22,776 nucleotides of DNA. Source: a bacterium (lineage in GTDB: Bacteria > Zhuqueibacterota > Zhuqueibacteria > Oceanimicrobiales > Oceanimicrobiaceae). A program made the translations under genes and the position numbers. The stretch is from NCBI GenBank assembly GCA_046758365.1, contig JBHIAC010000038.1, forward strand, positions 1 through 22,776. The letters are read 5' to 3'. Below are positions 8,513-21,416 of the stretch, piece after piece. The stretch's first letter is position 1; every line of letters begins with the position of its first letter. Below the pieces are notes generated by a model. That model was not told the DNA's origin. It ran no database searches and saw only the letters and a list, made by a program, of their open reading frames with translations.

Positions 8513-10411
8513 ATGGATATAAACAAAACAATCTTGCTTGTAGACGATGATCCAGATATGCTGGAAATTGGGGGTATAATTATCCATAAAGCCGGTTACA
8601 ACTACCTTGCCGCCGCTTCGGGGGAGGAAGGATTAGAAGTACTTATCCGAGAAAGGCCGGATTTGGTTATTTTGGATTACATGATGCCTAATATGAATGG
8701 CTATGAATTTTTCAAACAAATGACGAATAATCCAAAATACAAAATGGTGCGAGAAACTCCGGTAATTATGCTTACAGCAAAATCTGAGGAAGAGGTAGAA
8801 CGCAAAGAACTTTTTGAGATGGGACTAAGCGCGTTTTTGTTAAAGCCGTTTGGCAATCGGGAACTGATTAATGTAATTGATAATGTGTTCATTCTCCACC
8901 AGATGCGGATGAATAACAAAGAACTTCAGCAGAAAGTTAAACGGACAGAATATAAATACCAAGACTTAATCGAAAATGCTAGCGATTTGATATTCACTTT
9001 GGACCCGCAGGCAAGATTTGTTTTTATTAACAGACGTTTATCTTCAATAACTGGCTTAGACAGAAAAGGGTTGATGGGTAAGAATTTTTTTGACTTAATT
9101 GTACCTGAAGATCGCGAATACGCCAAATCGAATTTTCAAAAAACTATTAATGGACGTTCTAGCATTTTTGAAGTAAGAATTCACCACAACAACAAAAAGT
9201 GTATTTATCTTTCTACAAATATAAATCCCATATTTGAAAGGGGTCAGGTTGTTGGCTGTGTTGGCATAGCTCGAAACATTACCAAGAGAAAACAGCTTGA
9301 ACAAGAGATCATTGAACTAAAAAATTTCAATGAAAGTATTATTCAAAGCATAGGCTCTGGTTTAATTACGGTAGATCTGGACCGTAAAATCACTTCTTTT
9401 AACAATAGTGCAGAAGAAGTTTTGGGATATACCACCGAGGAAGTAGTAGGAAAATCGTTAGATGAAGTATTCCCCGCTGAAGAATGCAAAAGATTATTAC
9501 CAAATTTTGATAATCCTGATCAAGCTCTATTAAATCGTGAAATGCAGTTAACAGCGAAAAATGGTAAGCAGGTTTTTGTGGGCTTTACAGTGACACCGCG
9601 GATCGACAACCAAATTCAGCGAGTCGGAACGATCATTTCTTTTAGAGACATTACGCAAATCAAACAAATGCAGGCCGAGGTCCAAAGGATGGACCGCCTG
9701 GCTTCCATGGGCGTTTTAGCTTCTGGAATTGCCCATGAGATAAGAAATCCATTGGCAGGAATTAAAACGATTGCGCAAACATTGGAGGAAGAAATTGAAA
9801 CTGACAACCCCCGTCGAGAATATATTTCTCGAATTGTTCGGCAAGTGAACCGTATGGATGATCTGTTAAAAACATTTTTTTCCTACGCAAAACCTCGGCA
9901 GCCTCAACGGAAATTTCATCGACTCCAAGAAATTATACAAGAAGTTGTGGCCCTGCTTGAAAACCGCATACGAGGGCAATCAGTGAACTTTCAAGAAACG
10001 TATCATCCGGAACTTCCTTTATTATATATTGATTTCTATCAAATACAACAAGTGTTTGTAAATTTATTTCTAAATGCTCTGGACGCCATGCCTAAGGGAG
10101 GAGAATTAAAACTGGAAGCCTATCCCAAAATTACAACCCTTAAAAGAGTAGACCGTCGCGGACGCCCTTTTCCTGTCCAAAATAAAAGGGCACTATATGC
10201 AATAGTCAACATAACAGATACAGGCAAAGGCATAAAACCCAAAGACCTCCCTTCCATATTTAATCCTTTTTTTACTACAAAACCTCAAGGGTCTGGTTTA
10301 GGACTTTCGATTGTTTATAGAATTATAGCCGAACACGAGGGTGATATTCAAGTAGAAAGTGCATTAACTAAAGGGACATCTTTTCATCTGTTATTGCCTA
10401 CGGAGGAGTAA
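8513..10411 (+). CDS. Cytoplasmic hybrid histidine kinase REC-PAS-PAS-HisKA-HATPase (NtrB/AtoS-like)
   Basis: N-terminal REC (LVDDD, LDYMMP); two PAS domains; LASGIAHEIRNPL; NALDAM; FNPFFTTK..GSGLGL. Confidence 0.93.
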   Translation: MDINKTILLVDDDPDMLEIGGIIIHKAGYNYLAAASGEEGLEVLIRERPDLVILDYMMPNMNGYEFFKQMTNNPKYKMVRETPVIMLTAKSEEEVERKELFEMGLSAFLLKPFGNRELINVIDNVFILHQMRMNNKELQQKVKRTEYKYQDLIENASDLIFTLDPQARFVFINRRLSSITGLDRKGLMGKNFFDLIVPEDREYAKSNFQKTINGRSSIFEVRIHHNNKKCIYLSTNINPIFERGQVVGCVGIARNITKRKQLEQEIIELKNFNESIIQSIGSGLITVDLDRKITSFNNSAEEVLGYTTEEVVGKSLDEVFPAEECKRLLPNFDNPDQALLNREMQLTAKNGKQVFVGFTVTPRIDNQIQRVGTIISFRDITQIKQMQAEVQRMDRLASMGVLASGIAHEIRNPLAGIKTIAQTLEEEIETDNPRREYISRIVRQVNRMDDLLKTFFSYAKPRQPQRKFHRLQEIIQEVVALLENRIRGQSVNFQETYHPELPLLYIDFYQIQQVFVNLFLNALDAMPKGGELKLEAYPKITTLKRVDRRGRPFPVQNKRALYAIVNITDTGKGIKPKDLPSIFNPFFTTKPQGSGLGLSIVYRIIAEHEGDIQVESALTKGTSFHLLLPTEE

Positions 10412-10417
10412 TTAAAA

Positions 10418-11788
10418 ATGTCTAAAGCGAATGTTTTGATTGTTGAAGATAATGAGGACTTATGCCAGACATTGGCAGATGTTTTAGGAAAAGAGGGTAA
10501 TAAGGTACGCACGGCTTATTCAGGTGAACATGCCTTAAATATTTTACATAAAGATATCATTGATTTGGTATTATTAGATATCAAACTTCCAGATACAAAC
10601 GGCATAAAATTGCTGGAAGAAATCAAAGATCTGGACCCTGAAATCTTAGTTATTATGATTACAGCTTTGACAGATGCCCAACCTGCTGTAGATGCTATGA
10701 AAAGAGGCGCGTACGATTATTTAATGAAGCCTTTCGAATTGGATGAACTAAAAATAGTGTTAGCTAAGGCTCTGGAAACCCAGCACCTAAAGCGAGAGGT
10801 TTCTCGTTTGCTGAACCAGCAAAAGGAACAATTTCCCGATAATGAACTTTTTGGGAATTCTAAACCTATGAGAGAATTAAAAAAACTTATTAAAATCGTG
10901 GCAGGAACTCCCAAAACTTCTGTATTGATTCAAGGTGAGAGTGGTACTGGAAAAGAACTGGTGGCAAATGCTATACATAATTGGAGTGCCAGGGCTGAAA
11001 AACCACTTATTAAGATAAACTGCAGCGCTATTCCAGAAAACCTTTTGGAAAGCGAACTTTTTGGTTATGAAAAAGGAGCATTCACAGATGCCAAAAACAT
11101 GAAAAAGGGCATTTTTGAACTTGCTAATAACGGCACCATTATTCTGGACGAAATTTCCAGTATGCAGATGTCCATACAGCCAAAATTTCTTCGGGTCTTA
11201 GAAACTCAGTCATTTAGACGCATTGGCGGCACTTCTGATATTCAAATCGATGTCAGAATTATTGCAGCCACAAATAGAAACTTAGAAGATTGTGTTGAAC
11301 AACAAACTTTTAGAGAGGATTTATATTATCGTCTTAAAGTCATGGTACTAAATATCCCTACGCTACGAGAAAGAGCCGAAGACATCTTACCATTGGCCAT
11401 GCTTTTTATTGAAGCAAACAATAAGGAATTTAGTAAAAATGTAAAATGTATTGCTCCTGACGCTCAGGAACGAATGTTGAAATATAGCTGGCCAGGAAAC
11501 GTGCGAGAACTAAAAAATGTAATAGAAAGAGCTGTTATTTTATGTAATGGGGATGTACTGCAATCAGAACACTTACCTTTGGAACTGCAACAGGGTGTAT
11601 CAAAAATTTCAACTTCCACAGTATTTAGTTCAATTACTGGTGAAGGCTATTCATTAGAGGAAATGGAAAAACGACATATTATTAATATGTTAAAAAAATA
11701 TAATGGTAACAAATCTAAAACGGCAAGGATCCTTAGTATCTCTCGCTCTACGCTTCGAGAAAAAATGAAAAACTATGGTATAGCTTAA
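10418..11788 (+). CDS. sigma54-dependent transcriptional activator (REC-AAA+-Fis HTH, NtrC/AtoC family)
   Basis: REC; Walker A GESGTGKE; ESELFGYEKGAFTDA; Walker B LDEI; FREDLYYRL; WPGNVREL; HTH NKSKTARILSISRSTL. Confidence 0.95.
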   Translation: MSKANVLIVEDNEDLCQTLADVLGKEGNKVRTAYSGEHALNILHKDIIDLVLLDIKLPDTNGIKLLEEIKDLDPEILVIMITALTDAQPAVDAMKRGAYDYLMKPFELDELKIVLAKALETQHLKREVSRLLNQQKEQFPDNELFGNSKPMRELKKLIKIVAGTPKTSVLIQGESGTGKELVANAIHNWSARAEKPLIKINCSAIPENLLESELFGYEKGAFTDAKNMKKGIFELANNGTIILDEISSMQMSIQPKFLRVLETQSFRRIGGTSDIQIDVRIIAATNRNLEDCVEQQTFREDLYYRLKVMVLNIPTLRERAEDILPLAMLFIEANNKEFSKNVKCIAPDAQERMLKYSWPGNVRELKNVIERAVILCNGDVLQSEHLPLELQQGVSKISTSTVFSSITGEGYSLEEMEKRHIINMLKKYNGNKSKTARILSISRSTLREKMKNYGIA

Positions 11789-11795
11789 TATCCAT

Positions 11796-11812
11796 TGGTC
11801 AGAATCTGACCA
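11796..11812. promoter_or_regulatory. Perfect palindrome, putative upstream activator sequence for the sigma54 activator
   Basis: TGGTCAGA-A-TCTGACCA, about 185 bp upstream of the -24 element and 7 bp after the activator's stop codon. Confidence 0.6.
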
Positions 11813-11994
11813 CCTTTCCTATTTTTTCCCCCACTTCATCTAATAAAATAACAAAATCTATATTATTTTATCTCCCTAAAAAATTTATTGTAATAACCCG
11901 CCCACCTGTTAAGTTTTTGATTTTTTATGACGAATACAAATGGAGAAAGTGTAGGACAACCGAGTATCCAGGACTAAATTAAAAAAACTTTACA

Positions 11995-12010
11995 TGGCAT
12001 AAGAGTTGCA
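11995..12010 (+). promoter_or_regulatory. sigma54 (-24/-12) promoter
   Basis: TGGCAT-AAGAG-TTGCA with exact GG-N10-GC spacing, 46 bp before the ATG at 12057, which has an AAGGAG RBS. Confidence 0.85.
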
Positions 12011-12056
12011 GATTCGGAAGTAGATAATTTTTCTTTTAGATTTAAGGAGTCCTACC

Positions 12057-12725
12057 ATGATGGCTCAAAAAAAGATTCTTATTGTGGATGATGAAGAAGA
12101 TATAACCTGGGGAATTTCAAAAAGTTTAGCTAATGCTAATTACGCATTTGATGTGCATTGTGTAAATTCCGGTACTCAAGCTCTAGCTATGATTGATCAA
12201 AATAGATTTGATCTGGTTGTGTCTGATATTCGAATGCCGGGTCGTAATGGACTGCAATTATTATTAGATATTAGAAAGAAGTGTCCGAACACAAAAATTA
12301 TTATAATGACCGCTTATGGTTCTCAAGAAATAAAAGAGCGAGCAGAAAAGCAAGGCAGCTTTTTCTATATTGAAAAACCATTTGAAATTGGATATTTAAA
12401 ACAAATTATCCTCAACGCTTTAGAAGTTTACAACAACGGATTTAAAGGATACCTTAATAATGTAGGGATTCGAGAATTGGTAGAATTTAATTGCGCCAGT
12501 AAACGCACGTCTTCTTTATGGATTTCAAAAGATGAAGAACAGGGTACCATTTACTTTAGAAACGGAGATATTATTCATGCTGAATGTGGAAAATTAAGTG
12601 GTGAGAGAGCTCTGTTTAATATTTTAAATTGGAGCAAAGGTAACTTTAAAATCATCCCAAATGTTTTAACAATTAAAAGAACCATTCTGAGAGATTGGAG
12701 AACACTTTTGCATCATTGTCTTTAA
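12057..12725 (+). CDS. Response regulator with C-terminal DUF4388/PATAN-like domain
   Basis: REC (IVDDE, SDIRMPG, TAYG, KPF) followed by GFKGYL...ELVEF...GTIYFRNGDIIHAECGKLSGERALFNILNWSKGNF, a DUF4388/PATAN pattern. Confidence 0.85.
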   Translation: MMAQKKILIVDDEEDITWGISKSLANANYAFDVHCVNSGTQALAMIDQNRFDLVVSDIRMPGRNGLQLLLDIRKKCPNTKIIIMTAYGSQEIKERAEKQGSFFYIEKPFEIGYLKQIILNALEVYNNGFKGYLNNVGIRELVEFNCASKRTSSLWISKDEEQGTIYFRNGDIIHAECGKLSGERALFNILNWSKGNFKIIPNVLTIKRTILRDWRTLLHHCL

Positions 12726-12737
12726 AAAGGAATTAAG

Positions 12738-13556
12738 ATGGGAGAAGTCATAGCAATAGCCAGTCAAAAAGGTGGAGTTGGCAAAACCACCACCGCAGTT
12801 AATTTAAGTGCCAGTCTGGCTTCTTTAGGGCACAAAGTTTTACTCATTGATGTAGATCCACAGGGTAGTGTGGCCAACAGTTTTGGATACGGCAGATATG
12901 ACATAAAAGCTGGTGTTTTGGATATATTTACAAGAGATATCCCCCTAAGTGAAGCTATTCACCCAACAGGTTTGGCAAATTTTGATTTTGTACCAACAAA
13001 TGTCTGGTCAGATGAAGGGGGCAAAAAACGGTTCATTGACTTGGCCGCGGAAAACAAACTAAAAGATGTAATAGAGCCAATAAAAAATCAATACGATTTT
13101 ATTTTTATTGATTGTCCTCCATCATTTGGTTATTTGACCTACAACGCGCTTATTGCTTCAGATTCAATTATTATACCCATCCAGTGTGAATATTACGCAT
13201 TAAAAGCCCTTGGAAGGTTTTTAAAATTAACCCGTCTAATCAAAAGTGAAAAAAATCTTAATTTAAAATATCGAGGTTTTCTATTAACCATGGTAGACAT
13301 GAGAAACAATCTCAGCAAAATTGTGATAGAAAAAGTCCGCTATACACTGCAAGGATTAGTATTTAATACAATCATTCCCAGAAATATCCGATTGGCAGAA
13401 GTGCCATTCCATGGGAAACCTGTAATTATGTTTGACAAAGCCTGCAAAGGGGCGACTTGTTACATGAATTTGGCATTTGAAATTTTAGGTGAAAATGGAC
13501 AAACTGAACCAGAAGTGGAACAAAGAGAACATACCGAATTAGTAGAAGGAGTCTAA
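12738..13556 (+). CDS. parA: ParA/Soj-family ATPase (orphan, no adjacent parB)
   Basis: Deviant Walker A KGGVGKTT; DVDPQG; IDCPPS; IPIQCEYYAL; IPRNIRLAEVP. Confidence 0.9.
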   Translation: MGEVIAIASQKGGVGKTTTAVNLSASLASLGHKVLLIDVDPQGSVANSFGYGRYDIKAGVLDIFTRDIPLSEAIHPTGLANFDFVPTNVWSDEGGKKRFIDLAAENKLKDVIEPIKNQYDFIFIDCPPSFGYLTYNALIASDSIIIPIQCEYYALKALGRFLKLTRLIKSEKNLNLKYRGFLLTMVDMRNNLSKIVIEKVRYTLQGLVFNTIIPRNIRLAEVPFHGKPVIMFDKACKGATCYMNLAFEILGENGQTEPEVEQREHTELVEGV

Positions 13557-13558
13557 AA

Positions 13559-13951
13559 TTGCCAAAAATTCTTATCGTTGAAGATGAGTTCAACACTCGC
13601 CAAGGGTTATCTGAAATATTAACAGAAGAAGGTTTCGAAGTAGCGTTAGCAGAAGATGGAGCCAATGCTTTAGAGAAGATAGATATTGATACCGATTTGC
13701 TTCTTTCGGATTTGCGCCTTCCAGATATTACAGGATTAGACCTATTTAAAAAGCTTAAGCCATTGTATCCTGAATTGGTCACAATAATTATGACAGCCTA
13801 TAGCACGCCAGACCTTGGCGAGGAGGCGAAAGATGCAGGTGTGTTCAGTTGGCTAACAAAACCTTTAAATATAGAAATACTCCTTTCCAAACTTCAGGAA
13901 GCCCTAATTTTTCACAAAAGAGAGAAAAATAAGCCTATGAACTGTGTTTAA
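13559..13951 (+). CDS. Single-domain response regulator
   Basis: ILIVEDE, SDLRLPD, TAY, KP motifs; TTG start with an AGGAG RBS overlapping the end of parA. Confidence 0.88.
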   Translation: MPKILIVEDEFNTRQGLSEILTEEGFEVALAEDGANALEKIDIDTDLLLSDLRLPDITGLDLFKKLKPLYPELVTIIMTAYSTPDLGEEAKDAGVFSWLTKPLNIEILLSKLQEALIFHKREKNKPMNCV

Positions 13952-14019
13952 AATTTCAAAATGACATAACTAAATAAGAGACCGTGCATTAGACAAATTC
14001 TTTTTAAAAATTTATTCTA

Positions 14020-14739
14020 ATGTACATAGAAAGGAGGTCTGGTGGTACCTTGTTCTCTGTAATTTTGCTAAAAATATTGAAAGAGGGATATTTTATTCTT
14101 CTAACCATTGTAATGTTTATTTCCATGGTAAGCTTTTCCCATAACGTATTTAATTTTGATAAAGCTAAGCAGAAGGTGGCGCAGTTTGAACACACCTTGA
14201 AAGATTTAAAAGGCGTAATTAAAACAGATAGTGTTCGACAGCATGCTATATTTAAGATTTCCAGAATTATAGAGCAATACAATAATAAATTGAATCCTCA
14301 AAAAAAATATGAAATCGCCAATTTAATTAATAATATGAGCATCAAATACACCAATCTCGATGTAGATCTCATCTGCGCCACCATTACACATGAAAGTGCT
14401 TTAACTTGGCAACCTGATATTATATCCCCAGCAGGCGCCATTGGATTAATGCAAATCATGCCCTCCACAGGTCTTTTTCTTTCCAAGCACGAAAGTATAA
14501 GATGGACGAATGAAAAAGATATCCTCTTTAATCCAATTTATAATATAAGATTAGGCTGCCGTTATCTTTCCATGTTAATTGAGATGTATCATTTGGACGG
14601 AGGGTTGGCTGCTTATAACGGTGGAGAAAGACGTGCGGCTATGTGGCTTGCCAGTGGACGAGATAATGAAGTACTCTTGGAAGAGACTCGGGATTATATC
14701 CCAGCCGTTTTAAAATTGTATGATATATTTAAAAATTAA
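14020..14739 (+). CDS. Membrane-anchored lytic transglycosylase (SLT domain)
   Basis: N-terminal hydrophobic helix; catalytic HES; AGAIGLMQIMP; LAAYNGG; ETRDYI. The start may instead be TTG at 14050, after AGGAGG. Confidence 0.9.
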   Translation: MYIERRSGGTLFSVILLKILKEGYFILLTIVMFISMVSFSHNVFNFDKAKQKVAQFEHTLKDLKGVIKTDSVRQHAIFKISRIIEQYNNKLNPQKKYEIANLINNMSIKYTNLDVDLICATITHESALTWQPDIISPAGAIGLMQIMPSTGLFLSKHESIRWTNEKDILFNPIYNIRLGCRYLSMLIEMYHLDGGLAAYNGGERRAAMWLASGRDNEVLLEETRDYIPAVLKLYDIFKN

Positions 14740-14900
14740 ACAAAAATCAATTTTTAGGATGGTCAAAAGACTTAAGAAAACAGATATAAAATTGTAAAAC
14801 CATAAAATCACAGAGATAAACTCTGAGCTCTGAAAAAAAATCCCTTAAAAAATCCTCTGTGGTTAGATTTTGAAAATATAAAATATCCAAGAAGGAATCC

Positions 14901-16784
14901 ATGGAAAATGTACAAAAGGTACTTTCTGATGATGAATTTTACCAAGAACTGATTAGAAGATTTTTCCATCCAAATAGTTATTTTTACCATTGCATTAGCC
15001 ATCATCTTGATCGTATCATTCAAAGTAACGAAAATTCCAACAACGAAAATTATCTGCTCTTTGGCAGTTTTTTGGATAGTTTGGTGACTTCTGAAAATAA
15101 AGTTCAAGAACTCCTAAGACTCACAGCCATTGGGGGATTTCATAAATTTATTGAAAACTTAACAACCGGAGTAAGCTACCTGCGGGATTCCGATCTGACC
15201 CCCGAACAGATGAAAATAGAAATTGAATCTCTGGCGCAATCAATGGTTAAAATTGCTTTGGACGCTCTTCAGCACCAAGATACAAGGGAAAAGCTTAAAG
15301 AATACCTTGAATACACAAAATCAGATTTAGTCGATACCTCAACTAACGAAGTCAATGATTCAAATAGTAAATTAGACGATGAAGAGATAATCGAATTCAC
15401 AGAGCCGCCTTCCGAGGTACCCGGAAATGCGGAACCAGAATTAACTCAGCGAAGCCCCACCGACTTAACTGAGTTTAATAAAAACGAAGAAAAGGATTTT
15501 CTTCAATTTATGGTTAAGGGTAAGGATACCTCAATTGAAAATGGAATCGACTCTGATTTAGCCAAAGAAGGTGGCTCTGTTGATATTAACCTTAACTCCC
15601 AAAATTACACCATAGGCAGAGACCAAGTAGATGAGCAGCCAGAAAGTGTTATTCGAGTATTTCTAACTGAGATAGAATATCAACTTGAACAGTTGCAAAA
15701 TACATTTAAATTGCTAAGAAGCGATATTAGAAACAAAAACCACTGGACCGAGTTGAGAAATATTTTTGAAAATATCAAATCAACGGCTATGATTTATGGA
15801 CTGGAGGGATTTGAGCAAATTGCCGCTAAGGCCATAAAAATCATATCTGATTCAATTCATGAACCTGAAAACTCTCATCGAACTTCTCTAACACTCTTAA
15901 TGGAAACAAAGAATGTTCTTAGCCATTTGATTCAAGGTGATGTAGAAAATCTTGATGATAAAATCATTCTAAATCTTATTCAAAAATTAAAGAATCCCAA
16001 GGAATCGCTTTGCGAAGACATAAAAGAATCTCAACAGAGTTACTTAACAGAGCTAGAACAAAGTAATTTTTCAGTTGAAAATAAAGAAAAATCAATAAAA
16101 AAAAATCAATTAAATAATAATTCAGATTTCATATTACCGGGCGAAGACGACGAGGAAATTATAAGTTTGGTTAGAGAAATTTCAAAGAATAACCAAAAAG
16201 AGGATATCTCAGAAAGTAAAACCACTGATTTTGGCGATTCACAGCCGCTTATATCTATTAATAAAACAGAAAAACAAGAACTCAAAAATGAAAAATCTGA
16301 ACCATTGGCACCAAAAATTGTTGAACCTTCATTTGATGATCAACTAATCGCTTTTAAAGAGGAGGCGGATCTTTATTTCAGCATAATAGAAGAGGCCCTT
16401 AACACCTTGGAGACTCAAGCAGATAATAAGACTGCGTTGGATGATTTAGAGTTGGCTTCTTATTCTCTTTATGGACTTACCTTAAAGTTGAACCTCGAAC
16501 CTCTTGGCAAAATTCCTGCATCTATTGAAGGATTGATAAAAAATATAATCTCTAAAAAATCTTTACTTTCAGACAAAGAGCGCATATTAATAAAAAAGGC
16601 ATATCAACATTTTCGAAGTTTAACGCGAATTGAAGAAACAGAGAAGCGTCAATATAAAGAACTCCTTTCTTCACTACAGGCATTAAACTCAAGACATCAG
16701 ATGAATTCATATAATGATAATCCTATACCGCCGAGCTCAGATGAGTCAAAGAAAATAATAACAGAAACAGCAGAAAAGTGTTAA
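14901..16784 (+). CDS. Hypothetical protein with two histidine-less Hpt-like domains and acidic linkers
   Basis: VFLTEIEYQLEQL...LRNIFENIKSTAMIYGLEGFEQIA and AFKEEADLYFSIIEEAL...LELASYSLYGLTLKLNLEPL follow the CheA-P1/Hpt pattern F..E..E.L...IFRAAHTLKGSA...G...L, with E290 and Y521 at the His position. Confidence 0.7.
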   Translation: MENVQKVLSDDEFYQELIRRFFHPNSYFYHCISHHLDRIIQSNENSNNENYLLFGSFLDSLVTSENKVQELLRLTAIGGFHKFIENLTTGVSYLRDSDLTPEQMKIEIESLAQSMVKIALDALQHQDTREKLKEYLEYTKSDLVDTSTNEVNDSNSKLDDEEIIEFTEPPSEVPGNAEPELTQRSPTDLTEFNKNEEKDFLQFMVKGKDTSIENGIDSDLAKEGGSVDINLNSQNYTIGRDQVDEQPESVIRVFLTEIEYQLEQLQNTFKLLRSDIRNKNHWTELRNIFENIKSTAMIYGLEGFEQIAAKAIKIISDSIHEPENSHRTSLTLLMETKNVLSHLIQGDVENLDDKIILNLIQKLKNPKESLCEDIKESQQSYLTELEQSNFSVENKEKSIKKNQLNNNSDFILPGEDDEEIISLVREISKNNQKEDISESKTTDFGDSQPLISINKTEKQELKNEKSEPLAPKIVEPSFDDQLIAFKEEADLYFSIIEEALNTLETQADNKTALDDLELASYSLYGLTLKLNLEPLGKIPASIEGLIKNIISKKSLLSDKERILIKKAYQHFRSLTRIEETEKRQYKELLSSLQALNSRHQMNSYNDNPIPPSSDESKKIITETAEKC

Positions 16785-16909
16785 CGAATTCGTTAAGATG
16801 GCAAAAATACCTTATCTAATGTATTAAAAAAATAAAAATTGAGGTTAAATTTAACTAGAAAATCAATGACTGGGCGATTTACTTCAATAACTAAGAGGTT
16901 AGCAAAATA

Positions 16910-18619
16910 ATGGTTAAAAATAGTTCAGAAACTGATAAAGAACTTGAGTCTGTTTTAGGCATCCATAAAACTCGAATTCGTATAATTGGCACGGGTGGTG
17001 CAGGAAATAATACGATTACCCGCTTACTTGAAGTTGGTATAAAAGAAGTGGATGTCATTGCCATCAATACAGATGCCCAAGATCTTTTATTTGCGAAAGC
17101 CCATCAAAAGGTTCTCATAGGTAAAAACATAACGAATGGATTGGGGGCCGGAAGCGATCCTGAAAAGGGCGAGGATTCTGCCAAAGAGAGTTCAGAGGAT
17201 ATTGAAAAAGTTATTTCTGGCAGTGATATGATTTTTATTACCTGTGGATTGGGAGGCGGCACTGGTACAGGTTCAGCTCCCATCATTGCCGAGATCGCAA
17301 AAAAAATAGGGGCCTTGACTATTGCAATAGTAACTTTACCATTTTCTGATGAGGGTATTGTACGTTGGGAAAATGCTCGCAAAGGTTTAGACAAACTTCA
17401 AAAAAATGTAGATACTGTAATTGTTGTGCAAAACGATCGTCTTTTAGACATAGTTCCTGATATGCCGTTGAATGAGGCATTTAAAGTTGCAGATGAAATT
17501 CTTGTTAATGCAGTCAAGGGAATAACAGAATTGGTAACAGAAAAAGGATTAGTCAATTTGGATTTCGCCGATATACGCACCATCATGCAGAACGGTGGGC
17601 TTGCCATGATAGGCCTTGGTGAAAGCGATTCCGAAAACAATGCCGAAGATGCCGCAGCAAAGGCACTTAAAAATCCTTTATTAGATATAGATATCACCGG
17701 AGCAAAAAGTGCTTTAATAAATATCACGGGTGGACAGAATATGTCATTAAGTTCTGCTAAAACAATAATGAAAATTGTGGCTGAACAATTAGACCTCTCA
17801 GCAAAAATAATTTGGGGAGCAAGATTAGATGAAACCATGAACCATTCAATCCGGGTGATGCTCATTGTTACTTGCCTGAAAACTAATAGGCGATCACCTT
17901 CTGAAATTGATATGGCAATTAAGTCTATAGACCATGTTACTTCAAAGTCTAAAGAAATATCAAAAAAGTCTAGTCCTGATAAAGTTAATTCGGTAAAAAA
18001 AATAGACACAGAACAAACGAAAAAAGTACTAAAACCTGTTAAAAATAAGGGAACCAAAGTATTCTCTGAATTATTCATGGAGGAATCGTATGCTGATCTA
18101 ATCGTACTGGATGAGGCAATCAATGGATTAGCCATTGGAAATCGTGCGAGAAATGAAAAATATTTACGAGAAATTAATAATGCTTGCTCGTCCTTACAAA
18201 GCACTGCCGAGTTATTTTCCTTAAAAAACATTTCTGAATATGCGAAGATCATTGGTGAAGTAACAAAAAGAGCTCTAAAAGGTGAATTTGATTTATCAGA
18301 ATGTCTCATTAAAATATACCGACAAATACCATCTTCCGTGGAGAGCTTAATAGCCGAAGAAGAAAATTCTAATACAAAAGCCGAAGAAATCAAGAAAAAA
18401 TTGAACAGTATACTAGCATTGTTAAAAAATTCACAAGAAAAAAATAATTTAAATTCCCAAGATCAAAATAAAACCAATAAGGTGAATACGCTGAAGAATG
18501 ATTTTGAAATAAAAAAACAGCAGGTAGATAAATCCTCCGCTGAAGTAGGACCGAACCATGACGAACTCAATTTCTCTAATGTAGACGATGCTGTGAAGTA
18601 CATTAAGAAATTGTTTTAG
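16910..18619 (+). CDS. ftsZ: FtsZ homolog (archaeal FtsZ1-like core) fused to a C-terminal histidine-less Hpt-like domain
   Basis: GTGGAGNN, INTDAQ, GLGAG, tubulin signature GGGTGTG, T7 loop NLDFAD, IIWGA. Then a Lys/Ser-rich linker and LFMEES...LREINNACSSLQSTAELFSL (Hpt-like). Confidence 0.92.
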   Translation: MVKNSSETDKELESVLGIHKTRIRIIGTGGAGNNTITRLLEVGIKEVDVIAINTDAQDLLFAKAHQKVLIGKNITNGLGAGSDPEKGEDSAKESSEDIEKVISGSDMIFITCGLGGGTGTGSAPIIAEIAKKIGALTIAIVTLPFSDEGIVRWENARKGLDKLQKNVDTVIVVQNDRLLDIVPDMPLNEAFKVADEILVNAVKGITELVTEKGLVNLDFADIRTIMQNGGLAMIGLGESDSENNAEDAAAKALKNPLLDIDITGAKSALINITGGQNMSLSSAKTIMKIVAEQLDLSAKIIWGARLDETMNHSIRVMLIVTCLKTNRRSPSEIDMAIKSIDHVTSKSKEISKKSSPDKVNSVKKIDTEQTKKVLKPVKNKGTKVFSELFMEESYADLIVLDEAINGLAIGNRARNEKYLREINNACSSLQSTAELFSLKNISEYAKIIGEVTKRALKGEFDLSECLIKIYRQIPSSVESLIAEEENSNTKAEEIKKKLNSILALLKNSQEKNNLNSQDQNKTNKVNTLKNDFEIKKQQVDKSSAEVGPNHDELNFSNVDDAVKYIKKLF

Positions 18620-18639
18620 CTTTTTAGTGTACTTTTGAC

Positions 18640-19809
18640 ATGCAAACTCATAAAACAAATATAGACTTAAAAATATCTTCCGAAAATTCACTCCCTAATG
18701 TAATTTTAGATCGGTTTACCCAAGACTACTATTATCAAGAGGTCATGCAAGGTCTTAAAAAAATTGAGTCCTATTTATCTAAATTGCAGAAAGAACCTGG
18801 TAATCGAGAATATGTACAGCAGATTAGGAATATTGCAGAGTATGTAACAGATTTAGCAATGATCCATGGATACGAAGGGGTGGAGAATATAGCTGAAAAG
18901 ATAAGGTCTAGTTCTGATCTTATTTTGTGCAAAAGTGAGGAGTTGGAAAAACCTTTTCTTTCAAAAATAGAATTTGCCGTAAAAGCCATTCGTCAGGTGA
19001 TGGAATTGGAAGAAGATATTGACTATCAATTGATATTTGATGAGATTGACGAGAAAATAGCATTAAAACAAAAGGAAGTAAGATCTTGTGCCTCAAGACT
19101 TTCTAACTACTTTGAACAATCCAAGCAAAAAAATAAGCACCTATTTTTCGACATTCGAGAAATAAATACACTTATGAATTTAGTAGAAGAACCTCCAAGG
19201 ATCAAGTCAGGGAATAAGCCTAATAACTTAAATGATACCAAATTTATTAATAATCTCAAGAAAAATACGAAAAATTCAGCTATTAATTTTACACGACCTA
19301 TAGCATCGGCCGAAATTAGTAAAAATAACTTAACAGCCGTGGCAAAAGAACAATTATCTGTTATTGAACAGGCTGTATTAGAACTTCAGGTGATTCCTTA
19401 TGCGACCCATGCAATCCAAGATATTTACACAGCTTGTAAGACTTTACAAGAAACGGCACTGCGATTAAATGATAAAAATTTAACCTTAATTTTGAATCCC
19501 ATACAAAAACTTACTCAAGATAAATTAAATAAGACGAAGCCTGTTTCTGACTCCATTTTGGAAATATTTAATCAAACAACTAAACTCATACACAATCATA
19601 TAGATTATAATCAAGATGACATAAAGGAGATACAAAATCTTGGTCAAAAAATTGAAAAAATATTAAAAGTTGAATCAGTATCTTTAAAAGGCAAGGAAAT
19701 GGACACCGGACATTTTGCAAAAGATATGGAGGATGGATACGAAAAGAAAGGTGTTCACCGCAGCAAAATTGGTTCGTTTTTGAGAGGTTTGATTAAGAAT
19801 AAGAAATAA
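18640..19809 (+). CDS. Hypothetical protein with two histidine-less Hpt-like domains and a basic amphipathic C-terminus
   Basis: YYYQEVMQGLKKIE...IRNIAEYVTDLAMIHGYEGVENIA and AKEQLSVIEQAVLEL...IYTACKTLQETA; ends SKIGSFLRGLIKNKK. Confidence 0.7.
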   Translation: MQTHKTNIDLKISSENSLPNVILDRFTQDYYYQEVMQGLKKIESYLSKLQKEPGNREYVQQIRNIAEYVTDLAMIHGYEGVENIAEKIRSSSDLILCKSEELEKPFLSKIEFAVKAIRQVMELEEDIDYQLIFDEIDEKIALKQKEVRSCASRLSNYFEQSKQKNKHLFFDIREINTLMNLVEEPPRIKSGNKPNNLNDTKFINNLKKNTKNSAINFTRPIASAEISKNNLTAVAKEQLSVIEQAVLELQVIPYATHAIQDIYTACKTLQETALRLNDKNLTLILNPIQKLTQDKLNKTKPVSDSILEIFNQTTKLIHNHIDYNQDDIKEIQNLGQKIEKILKVESVSLKGKEMDTGHFAKDMEDGYEKKGVHRSKIGSFLRGLIKNKK

Positions 19810-19835
19810 ATAAATATTTAACAATTAAATTCAAC

Positions 19836-19870
19836 AAAAACCAGCCCCAGGTATTTGGGGCTGGTTTTTT
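19836..19870 (+). terminator. Intrinsic terminator closing the ftsZ-containing cluster
   Basis: AAAAA-CCAGCCCCA...TGGGGCTGG-TTTTTT. Confidence 0.9.
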
Positions 19871-19887
19871 ATTTTTCGAAAAAAAAG

Positions 19888-19916
19888 TTGCTTATTTAAA
19901 TGAATTTTATTACTAT
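19888..19916 (+). promoter_or_regulatory. sigma70-type promoter of guaB
   Basis: TTGCTT, 17 bp, TACTAT. Confidence 0.55.
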
Positions 19917-19931
19917 TAGTTCAAAATTTAA

Positions 19932-21414
<1,483 letters not shown>

Positions 21415-21416
<2 letters not shown>

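Follow-up and report, generated by a model that had tools for sequence, protein, structure and literature searches.

The stretch of DNA analysed here, referred to as the window, is contig JBHIAC010000038.1 in its entire length of 22,776 bases (C38 of a 3.74-Mb genome bin with 318 contigs, 95.5% completeness and 8.17% contamination). Its large open reading frames (ORFs) from 4226 to 21416 lie on the + strand throughout, and seven of them (12057-19809) form a gene cluster between a sigma-54 element at 11995-12010 and an intrinsic terminator at 19836-19869. The cluster encodes an FtsZ paralog, which we call FtsZ2, together with a REC-PATAN response regulator, an orphan ParA ATPase (ParA2), a single-domain REC protein, a lytic transglycosylase of the SLT family, and two proteins, U627 and U389, that match no Pfam or NCBIfam family. 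The original prediction, made by a model from the letters of the window alone, had described seven co-oriented genes with these two elements at their ends, and its coordinates and gene calls agree with the ORFs and with the Pfam and NCBIfam matches. The features of the cluster and of the region directly 5' of it are given below, with lengths in amino acids (aa).

11796-11812, + strand: palindrome TGGTCAGAATCTGACCA, just 3' of the activator gene
11910-11941, + strand: conserved A/T-rich block TAAGTTTTTGATT...TGACGAA, IHF-site-like (from an alignment of relatives)
11995-12010, + strand: sigma-54 -24/-12 element TGGCAT-N5-TTGCA (from motif and conservation)
12057-12725, + strand: REC-PATAN (DUF4388) response regulator (Pfam)
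12738-13556, + strand: ParA2, an orphan Soj-like ParA ATPase (Pfam AAA_31)
13559-13951, + strand: single-domain REC, CheY-like (Pfam)
14020-14739, + strand: membrane-anchored SLT-family lytic transglycosylase (Pfam SLT)
14901-16784, + strand: U627, 627 aa, no Pfam or NCBIfam family (profile and fold evidence)
16910-18619, + strand: FtsZ2, 569 aa, an FtsZ paralog with a 230-aa tail (Pfam, TIGR00065)
18640-19809, + strand: U389, 389 aa, no Pfam or NCBIfam family (profile evidence)
19836-19869, + strand: intrinsic terminator, ending the cluster ahead of guaB (stem and T-run)

The GTPase core of FtsZ2 (residues ~15-335) matches the Tubulin (PF00091, E 2e-46) and FtsZ_C (PF12327, E 3.8e-31) families, and the protein scores 417.1 bits with TIGR00065, for which the cut-off is 295.2. 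FtsZ proteins carry a G-box, GGGTGTG, and a T7 synergy loop, N-x-D-x-x-D; among the FtsZ2 orthologs the G-box is kept in 33/33, and the loop reads N-x-DF-[AN]-D in 32 of the 33 and NLDFSD in the remaining one. The core is followed by a disordered linker, a helical bundle resembling the P1 domain of CheA without its histidine (~383-510), a second linker and an amphipathic C-terminal peptide. The motif through which FtsZ binds FtsA and ZipA, D/E-[IV]-P-x-[FY]-[LIMV]-R, was found at the C-terminus of 20 of 21 canonical FtsZ sequences as D-[IV]-P-x-[YF]-[LIMV]-R, with the copy of the same genome ending in DIPTYLRRLVD; it is missing from FtsZ2, which ends ...FSNVDDAVKYIKKLF. In an alignment of 32 orthologous tails the helical domain is succeeded by a variable linker, and most sequences end in FSNVxDAVKYIxKLF. 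The C-terminal 11-mer of FtsZ2 has the highest helical hydrophobic moment (0.76) among 559 windows along the protein; it may bind a protein or, as a possible anchor, the membrane. A phage or plasmid tubulin was rejected as identification, since FtsZ2 scores as a true FtsZ, and so was a magnetosome-type FtsZ-like protein, since the window is without mam-type genes.

A check for a second, canonical ftsZ in a dcw cluster, proposed in the original prediction, located one on contig C79 of the same bin; FtsZ2 is thus not the sole FtsZ of the genome. The canonical gene (394 aa, TIGR00065 433 bits; its product is called FtsZ1 here) ends a dcw cluster of the order mraZ-rsmH-ftsI-murF-mraY-ftsW-murG-murB-ftsQ-ftsA-ftsZ. 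A chromosomal ParA, 47% identical to ParA2, is encoded on contig C4 next to a ParB_N gene. The genome has two ParB_N matches, that one and another on contig C2, and none falls within the window, which, as had been claimed, is also without ftsA, ftsQ, mur and parB genes in Pfam and NCBIfam scans. With a separate dcw ftsZ and a separate parA-parB pair in the genome, the cluster therefore carries extra copies of FtsZ and of a Soj-type ParA. The sigma-54 gene rpoN was found on contig C31 (E 1.1e-63).

The cores of FtsZ2 and FtsZ1 are 45% identical over 295 aa. In a maximum-likelihood tree of cores, obtained by a quick search on 56 rows without an outgroup, 35 FtsZ2 sequences (including the variants of families f15 and f23) are separated from 21 canonical FtsZ sequences by one branch with an SH-aLRT support of 100. 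This branch consists of two segments of 2.58 and 0.66, about 3.2 substitutions per site; the two groups had therefore parted before these families radiated. FtsZ2 thus shares with a housekeeping dcw FtsZ the tubulin/FtsZ GTPase core, the FtsZ_C domain, an intact G-box and T7 loop and a score above the TIGR00065 cut-off, and differs from it in lying outside dcw behind a sigma-54 promoter, in lacking D-I-P-x-Y/F-L-R, in carrying a P1-like bundle and another amphipathic end, and in belonging to a separate clade. Among the best 120 of 8000 scored relatives of FtsZ2, cores are 65-85% identical and lengths mostly 480-900 aa; a precomputed Pfam Hpt (PF01627) match is present in 9 of them, and those with a name are called only 'cell division protein FtsZ', so that the second FtsZ is invisible to annotation-based surveys.

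The original prediction had called the FtsZ tail and partner proteins pseudo-Hpt, a call that profiles and predicted folds bear out, with the domains being specifically CheA-P1-like. The window holds five such modules, one in the FtsZ2 tail, two in U627 and two in U389, and none of them has the acceptor histidine. A profile of 32 FtsZ2 tails matched CheA P1 structures in the PDB (1i5n, E 3e-7; 8c5v, 4.7e-7; 2lp4, 7e-7; 1tqg, 5.5e-5), as well as BRIC1 (6ff6), of which the PDB title says only that it is a novel repeat protein. The U389 profile found Thermotoga CheA P1 through its second domain (E 1.1e-5), and the U627 profile found CheA P1 through its C-domain (E 8e-4) and, weakly, through its mid-domain (E 0.017). 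In hhalign comparisons the FtsZ2 tail was matched to U389 domain 2 with a probability of 97.8% (E 1.1e-12) and to the U627 mid-domain with 96.1% (E 3.3e-9); in whole-genome searches with the U627 profile, U389 domain 1 was retrieved at E 8.4e-12, and FtsZ2 tails from several loci at E ~1e-11. At the column equivalent to His48 of CheA, histidine occurs in none of the 32 FtsZ2 tails, which have Ser (13), Thr (5), Ala (4), Ile (4) or one of five other residue types there. It is likewise missing from all 35 U627 mid-domains, 27 first and 13 second domains of U389, and is found in the C-domain of U627 in 5 of 35 relatives, the window protein having Tyr in this column (that of residue 521).

U627 consists of a seven-helix N-domain (10-145) and two P1-like bundles (249-389 and 478-605), with an invariant PGEDD (413-417) in a disordered linker. 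Its AlphaFold2 model (mean pLDDT 75.8) is confident for helical domains at 10-145, 249-389 and 478-605, with disordered linkers between them. Using VIA-align, residues 476-601 superimposed on 3kyj_A, the CheA3 P1 domain bound to CheY6, with Z 16.7 and a root-mean-square deviation (rmsd) of 2.5 A over 124 of 129 residues, and residues 246-350 on 1tqg_A with Z 15.3 and rmsd 2.3 A over 103 residues. Both Z values exceed those of the best unrelated bundles (12.6 or less). Foldseek listed 3kyi first, at a target TM-score of 0.79 and with weak E-values of at least 0.03. The N-domain is the best-conserved part of the family, with F13, R20, F22, S26 and F28 invariant, and modelled alone it reached a pLDDT of 85.9 and a pTM of 0.77. 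It gave no convincing fold match with VIA (best Z 5.2 with 8kd2_B, rmsd 4.7 A, 120 aligned) or Foldseek (best E 0.43), a result that says nothing on the novelty of its fold, and hhalign gave a probability of 1.4% for its relation to the P1-like tail. Look-alikes in the Atlas, based on language-model features, are weak leads: one cluster with Hpt on 16% of its members (0.90) and one with FimL_2nd on 15% (0.87). U627 appears to be a scaffold-like protein.

U389 contains two P1-like bundles (~30-140 and ~226-346) and a conserved FDI[KR]E motif (F170, I172, E174), and its C-terminus, KIGSFLRGLIK, is basic and amphipathic. Some half of the U389 orthologs have only ~200 aa and the first domain, and FDIKE-like strings are also seen by eye in the FtsZ2 linkers of several orthologs. 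A phmmer search with U627 over 1.84 billion representatives returned 141 proteins. Word-index searches, which are limited in reach, returned 8 proteins for U389 and 6 for the FtsZ2 tail, and searches of genomes far more. The weak end of the phmmer list (E 7e-8 to 9e-4) is made up of multi-Hpt CheA-type kinases and multi-Hpt proteins; CheA-type proteins are therefore the likely source of the P1-like module.

ParA2 belongs to AAA_31 (E 1.6e-51) and has the deviant Walker A motif, KGGVGKT in the window and KGGxGK[TS] in 28/28 orthologs; no parB gene adjoins it. In PomXYZ of Myxococcus and MipZ of Caulobacter, systems of the ParA family place the Z ring by acting on a single housekeeping FtsZ. The present cluster resembles them in encoding an orphan ParA-type ATPase along with large non-enzymatic partners and an FtsZ on which it could act; it is unlike them in that they are not known to include an FtsZ paralog, P1-like modules, receivers or sigma-54 control, and in that ParA2 is a paralog of the chromosomal Soj-like ParA. 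The lytic transglycosylase (PF01464, E 2.9e-19) has a hydrophobic N-terminal segment. Catalytic motifs of the SLT family are E-S, GLMQ and AYNxG, and they are present in 29/31 (ES), 31/31 (GLMQ) and 31/31 (AYNxG) sequences. Its best NCBIfam match is a flagellar-assembly lytic transglycosylase, at 68 bits, far under the cut-off of 234. In the REC-PATAN protein, REC covers residues 7-118 (E 9.1e-26) and DUF4388 residues 130-221 (E 2.5e-14), and the 23 orthologs compared all keep the phospho-acceptor residues D11, D12, D57 and K107. It had been described as a PatA-like PATAN regulator; both domains are indeed present, as in Anabaena PatA and Synechocystis PixG and PixE (DUF4388/PF14332 with REC), in the reverse order, with REC first and PATAN second. 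According to the accessible part of bioRxiv 10.1101/2021.06.11.447907, PATAN is a protein-binding output domain, and PatA-type regulators have it N-terminal and REC C-terminal.

Conservation was assessed on 19 loci, each taken from another genome of the phylum:

U627-FtsZ2-U389 in the same order and on the same strand: 19/19 loci
ParA: 18/18 loci reaching that far
REC-PATAN: 16/18 loci
SLT: 16/19 loci
single REC: 9/18 loci
sigma-54 activator and kinases directly upstream: 14/16 loci with enough flank
guaB downstream: 12/19 loci

The gene order, whose conservation the original prediction had wanted checked, recurs in further Calditrichota/KSB1 records and is kept across classes of the phylum. 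In a wider set of 45 loci, of which 8 had been fetched twice (L043=L025, L046=L029, L048=L026, L056=L038, L059=L042, L060=L041, L067=L039, L068=L036), U627 is followed by FtsZ2 in 34 of the 37 distinct places; in the remaining three the contig, of 2.5-3.2 kb, breaks off at U627. A scan for motifs of the U627 alignment in one genome per GTDB species gave 26 confirmed loci, all from metagenome-assembled genomes and labelled candidate division KSB1, Calditrichota/Calditrichaeota, Caldithrix sp., Candidatus Zhuqueibacterota or 'bacterium', apart from a few labelled Cytophagia or Bacteroidetes that look like mislabelled bins. guaB, the product of which takes the committed step to GTP, adjoins this cluster of a GTPase in the loci counted above; in the window a strong terminator stands between them.

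A census was taken of 167 species-level genomes of the phylum, two of which (G158 and G162) are flagged as unpublished; counts without these two are given in brackets where they were made, and nothing else stated here depends on them. FtsZ_C was found in 165/167 genomes (163/165), with two or more matches in 93/167 (92/165). The U627 profile matched 101/167 genomes and a single-query search with U389 50/167. In families f4 and f6-f10, with 47 genomes, 46 have one FtsZ and one has none, and the U627 profile matched only two, both weakly (E ~1e-6); the second FtsZ and its partners are therefore present or absent together at the family level, a co-occurrence among related, not independent, genomes to which no statistic is attached.

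Two variants of the locus were encountered. L071 (G033:C6, family f23, in another class) has kinases, the activator, a 146-aa REC protein and a 551-aa FtsZ2, followed by an FAD oxidase and tRNA synthetases; its FtsZ2 has a very long branch (2.69). This reduced content hints at receiver and FtsZ2 as the minimal pair. L070 (G152:C40, family f15), with which L072 (G149:C26) is likewise listed, has a 711-aa FtsZ, the tail of which gives a weak Hpt match (E 0.008), among other neighbours. There FtsZ is flanked by proteins of 589 aa and 239 aa without a family, which might be very divergent forms of U627 and U389, and a cohesin/dockerin protein is encoded nearby.

The sigma-54 element starts with TGGCATAAGAGTTGC at 11995-12009, the next base, at 12010, being A (11995-12010 reads TGGCATAAGAGTTGCA), and lies 47 nt 5' of the first start codon. 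It is the sole intergenic match to TGGCAC-N5-TTGC with one mismatch in the window, in which the loose consensus (up to two mismatches) is not enriched (12 observed, 12.45 expected); the significance of the element therefore rests on its conservation in relatives. There, TGG[CT]A[CT]-N5-[CT]TGC was found between the activator and the first cluster gene in 24/24 distinct loci (28 table rows less 4 duplicates of places already counted), mostly 46-90 nt 5' of the start. Of 5 distinct loci that have no adjacent activator, 4 also carry it 5' of the cluster. By chance, 0.0038 strict motifs are expected per 300 nt, as calculated from 94 occurrences in the genome to which the window belongs, both strands counted. 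The promoter that had been predicted is thus supported by recurrence of the motif, by the presence of rpoN in the genome and by the activator gene directly upstream, and transcription of the cluster would depend on sigma-54 and this activator. A genome of 3.7 Mb with 94 strict motifs, counting both strands, may have a sizeable sigma-54 regulon.

Further regulatory elements may lie between the activator gene and the promoter. Directly 3' of the activator gene, 13 family-level regions share, in an alignment, a partly conserved block that in the window is the palindrome TGGTCAGAATCTGACCA, ~199 nt 5' of the -24 element; exact 5-bp arms at about -199 or -193 recur in 3 of the 13. The palindrome might terminate the activator gene, bind an activator, or do both. 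TGACGAA is found 55-69 nt 5' of the -24 element in 10/13 regions. The A/T-rich block was called IHF-site-like by reference to YAANNNNTTGATW, which we take to be the IHF consensus and which occurs exactly, at -85 or -86, in 5/13 regions. A distal palindrome, a bend site and a -24/-12 element form the classical layout of activator-dependent promoters.

At the other end of the cluster, the terminator has a stem of 15 pairs, 7 of them G-C, followed by a T-run. Junctions within the cluster are tight between REC-PATAN and ParA2 (12 nt), ParA2 and single REC (2 nt, the start codon following the ParA2 stop) and FtsZ2 and U389 (20 nt). The three wider gaps singled out in the original prediction are correct as 13952-14019 (68 nt), 14740-14900 (161 nt) and 16785-16909 (125 nt). 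A sigma-54 element within these gaps was considered and set aside, none being seen there, and the terminator scan lists none on the + strand in them. The cluster had been taken to start at the sigma-54 promoter. The element itself stands, and the unit is likely to begin 5' of it, with the conserved genes for GGDEF-REC, kinase, REC-PAS-kinase and sigma-54 activator (5706-11788). No RNA runs are listed that contain 11790-19880; three runs of one study, a hydrothermal vent metagenome, contain the stretch as DNA contigs.

The genes flanking the cluster in the window are the following.

first gene of the + run, before the REC-GGDEF gene, + strand: glycine-cleavage P-protein subunit (Pfam, NCBIfam)
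5706-6656, + strand: REC-GGDEF diguanylate cyclase (Pfam; GGEEF motif, RxxD I-site)
6667-8148, + strand: HAMP-PAS-HisKA-HATPase sensor histidine kinase (Pfam; synteny kept)
8213-8464, + strand: small HisKA-like ORF, 83 aa (Pfam, weak HisKA match, E 9.8e-4)
8513-10411, + strand: REC-PAS-PAS-HisKA-HATPase hybrid kinase (Pfam)
10418-11788, + strand: NtrC-type sigma-54 activator with REC, AAA+ sigma-54 interaction domain and HTH_8 (Sigma54_activat, E 9.5e-69)
19938-21416, + strand: guaB, IMP dehydrogenase (Pfam, NCBIfam)

Synteny of the HAMP-PAS sensor kinase is conserved in relatives. Orthologs of the hybrid kinase directly before the activator gene are 57-86% identical in the class-level loci and 44% in the reduced f23 locus. 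The REC-GGDEF protein is an upstream neighbour in the loci of relatives as well, and is probably part of the sensory input or output. Several relatives likewise have the 83-aa HisKA-like ORF between their two kinase genes, in some cases along with additional REC and kinase genes. In the remainder of the window, a cobalamin riboswitch (488-710; RF00174, 92.5 bits) 5' of a TonB-dependent receptor gene (1043-3211; plug, CarboxypepD_reg) is an ordinary arrangement for B12 uptake. Between the receptor and glycine-cleavage genes, 3212-4225, about 1 kb is without an ORF of at least 40 aa; an inverted repeat of 25 nt (4055-4079 and 4140-4164, 96% complementary) lies inside this stretch, and ~3650-3720 resembles, by eye, the first part of a periplasmic binding protein, which would make it a possible gene remnant. 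A STAS-domain protein of the anti-sigma-factor antagonist type is encoded at the end of the contig (22043-22381).

With moderate confidence, we read the cluster as an accessory FtsZ-based cytoskeletal module specific to the Calditrichota/KSB1 lineage, under two-component and sigma-54 control, in which P1 modules without histidine serve as docking sites. An accessory module apart from the housekeeping divisome is what the original prediction had proposed, and the conserved gene order, the separate dcw ftsZ and the conserved sigma-54 element support it. The contacts, the co-transcription and the cellular outcome that we infer would be as follows. A two-component cascade would switch the module on via the NtrC-type activator and the sigma-54 promoter. 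FtsZ2, in which all needed motifs are kept, would polymerise as a GTPase without the C-terminal peptide that ties FtsZ to FtsA. The P1-like modules would be docking sites for the receiver domains of the cluster, and the phosphorylation state of these would gate the place and time of FtsZ2 filament assembly. FtsZ2 and U389 would fix the assembly to the membrane by their amphipathic ends, the Soj-like ParA2 would place it relative to the nucleoid, and the membrane-anchored SLT enzyme would open peptidoglycan at its site, with conditional septation or envelope remodelling beside the housekeeping divisome as the output.

Docking of receivers on the P1-like modules is drawn by analogy, because CheA P1 binds CheY (3kyj) and the His-less FimL holds PilG. 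The modules of the window share with the CheA P1 domains that dock CheY (3kyj, 1i5n, 1tqg) the fold and, at the level of family profiles, a detectable sequence resemblance; they differ in having no acceptor histidine and no attached kinase domain, and in being fused to FtsZ or placed in scaffold proteins. In FimL of Pseudomonas aeruginosa, Gln occupies the acceptor sites of two Hpt-like domains, and the protein helps to recruit the receiver PilG to the poles, as described in the accessible parts of PMC3019171 and PMC10519157, respectively. As a scaffold at the FimV polar hub it resembles the present proteins in its several domains and in Hpt-like modules unable to accept phosphate, the receiver-localising role being that of FimL; it is unlike them in lineage and in belonging to the Pil-Chp pilus system rather than to an FtsZ/ParA/SLT context. 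U627, the FtsZ2 tail and U389 gave no match to the Pfam FimL families at E-values up to 1. For a tie of PATAN proteins to division the precedent is PatA, which interacts with division factors (PMC7380572). Complex prediction for the REC domain of the REC-PATAN protein (1-126) with the P1-like FtsZ2 tail (1-135) scored 0.01 and 0.00, relative to a mark of 0.32, in runs without controls that speak neither for nor against binding.

Several observations weigh against this reading of the cluster. The Hpt-like domains of the window stay under the Pfam threshold (best U627, at 16.2 bits and a threshold of 24.6), and the FtsZ2 tail and U389 of the window have no Pfam Hpt match; the evidence for homology to P1 comes from profiles of the families and from predicted folds. 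High scores in structural comparison come easily to helical bundles, unrelated designed ones reaching Z 12.6. The acceptor-column histidine in the C-domain of 5/35 U627 relatives makes true phosphotransfer possible in some of these. The FtsZ tree is a quick version without outgroup. Locus L034 is without the strict sigma-54 motif, and at least two flanked loci (L033 and L040) have no adjacent activator or kinase genes. The single REC is present in only 9/18 loci and SLT in 16/19; neither is therefore essential to the core, and of the system of seven genes that had been proposed the core is conserved, with single REC and SLT as accessories. Contamination of the bin is 8.17%, yet the pattern of two FtsZ proteins is also found in 93/167 genomes.

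Three other explanations were weighed. FtsZ2 could be a regulated modifier of the housekeeping Z ring that co-assembles with FtsZ1 or caps it and, together with the REC-PATAN protein, delays, blocks or relocates division, as a checkpoint or commitment device. Mixed filaments are conceivable with cores that are 45% identical and polymerisation motifs that are intact, and the FtsA-binding peptide is present in FtsZ1 and missing from FtsZ2. The accessible part of PMC7380572 describes the PATAN protein PatA as interacting with division factors and destabilising the division complex in Anabaena, and that of bioRxiv 10.1101/2025.09.29.679267 an inhibition of division by an over-expressed FtsZ paralog in Agrobacterium. 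A pure inhibitor, however, would have no obvious need of its own ParA, a lytic transglycosylase, two multi-domain scaffolds and possible membrane anchors, and the paralog groups are ~3.2 substitutions per site apart; we consider such a modifier unlikely.

A module that positions or builds a cargo unrelated to division, such as a chemosensory array, a pilus, a secretion machine or an envelope complex, with FtsZ2 as track or scaffold, ParA2 as positioner and SLT as wall opener, appears to us quite improbable. Orphan ParAs that position arrays are known, the SLT enzyme has the flagellar-assembly type as its best, far sub-threshold match (68 vs 234 bits), and the P1-like modules lead to CheA-type proteins, with multi-Hpt CheA-like kinases among the matches of the U627 phmmer search (E 7e-8 to 9e-4). 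In Synechocystis, according to the accessible part of bioRxiv 10.1101/2021.06.11.447907, PATAN regulators bind to parts of the pilus motor. Against a cargo of this kind, Pfam finds no chemoreceptor, CheW, pilus, flagellar or secretion genes in the window, no such protein was among the queries mapped on the 19 loci, where flanking genes are only partly annotated, and FtsZ2 scores above the FtsZ equivalog cut-off. That the genes are neighbours by inherited synteny only, transcribed separately and without joint work, is most improbable: the gaps of 68, 161 and 125 nt could house promoters, and guaB is likewise a conserved neighbour (12/19 loci) without an evident functional tie, but U627, FtsZ2 and U389 have the same rare His-less P1 module and stay together in 19/19 loci, U627 co-occurs with the second FtsZ at the family level, the order is kept across classes, the junctions of 12, 2 and 20 nt are tight, and even the reduced L071 keeps activator, REC and FtsZ2 together.

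The accessory FtsZ-based module may, as a bolder suggestion that we make tentatively, stand for a new class of signal-gated cytomotive filament, in which phosphorylated receivers docking on His-less P1 modules determine the place and time of assembly of a second, FtsA-independent FtsZ machine with its own ParA and wall-cutting enzyme, in an alternative programme of division or morphogenesis ancestral to a phylum-level lineage. Two-component phospho-signalling would then act directly on a polymer of the tubulin family, through a CheA P1 domain that, having lost its histidine, became fused to FtsZ and was copied into two scaffold proteins. Regulation of FtsZ is known to act through dedicated inhibitors and positioning systems. 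The single parts of the cluster are known families; a fusion of FtsZ to a dead P1 domain, with partners made of the same module, was not found described in the searchable literature, which leaves out subscription journals and bioRxiv supplements, and the statement of the original prediction that no system with this combination is described holds within that range. The words Calditrich, KSB1 and Hpt are absent from the accessible text of bioRxiv 10.1101/2025.09.29.679267 and from the FtsZ/tubulin survey PMC9871819, and FtsZ has no occurrence in the Zhuqueibacterota paper PMC11683472. In Rhizobiaceae FtsZ1 and other duplications, as far as the accessible part of bioRxiv 10.1101/2025.09.29.679267 describes them, a second FtsZ has been kept for long beside the essential one, mostly truncated to the GTPase domain, whereas FtsZ2 carries an additional domain of signalling origin and comes with partners of its own.

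For the biology of this poorly studied lineage, known mainly from metagenome-assembled genomes, the cluster is of interest in being conserved across much of it. If the proposed mechanism is true, the fusion of FtsZ with a receiver-docking module would tie signal transduction directly to a bacterial cytoskeletal polymer, a link of which we found no description, and if docking takes place, the His-less P1 modules would be a second example, after FimL, of a docking device that can be reused. Among the parts of the cluster open to testing are an FtsZ that lacks the FtsA-binding tail, what may be a built-in membrane anchor, and a seven-helix domain without a clear structural relative; the cluster would also bear on how FtsZ paralogs acquire new functions.

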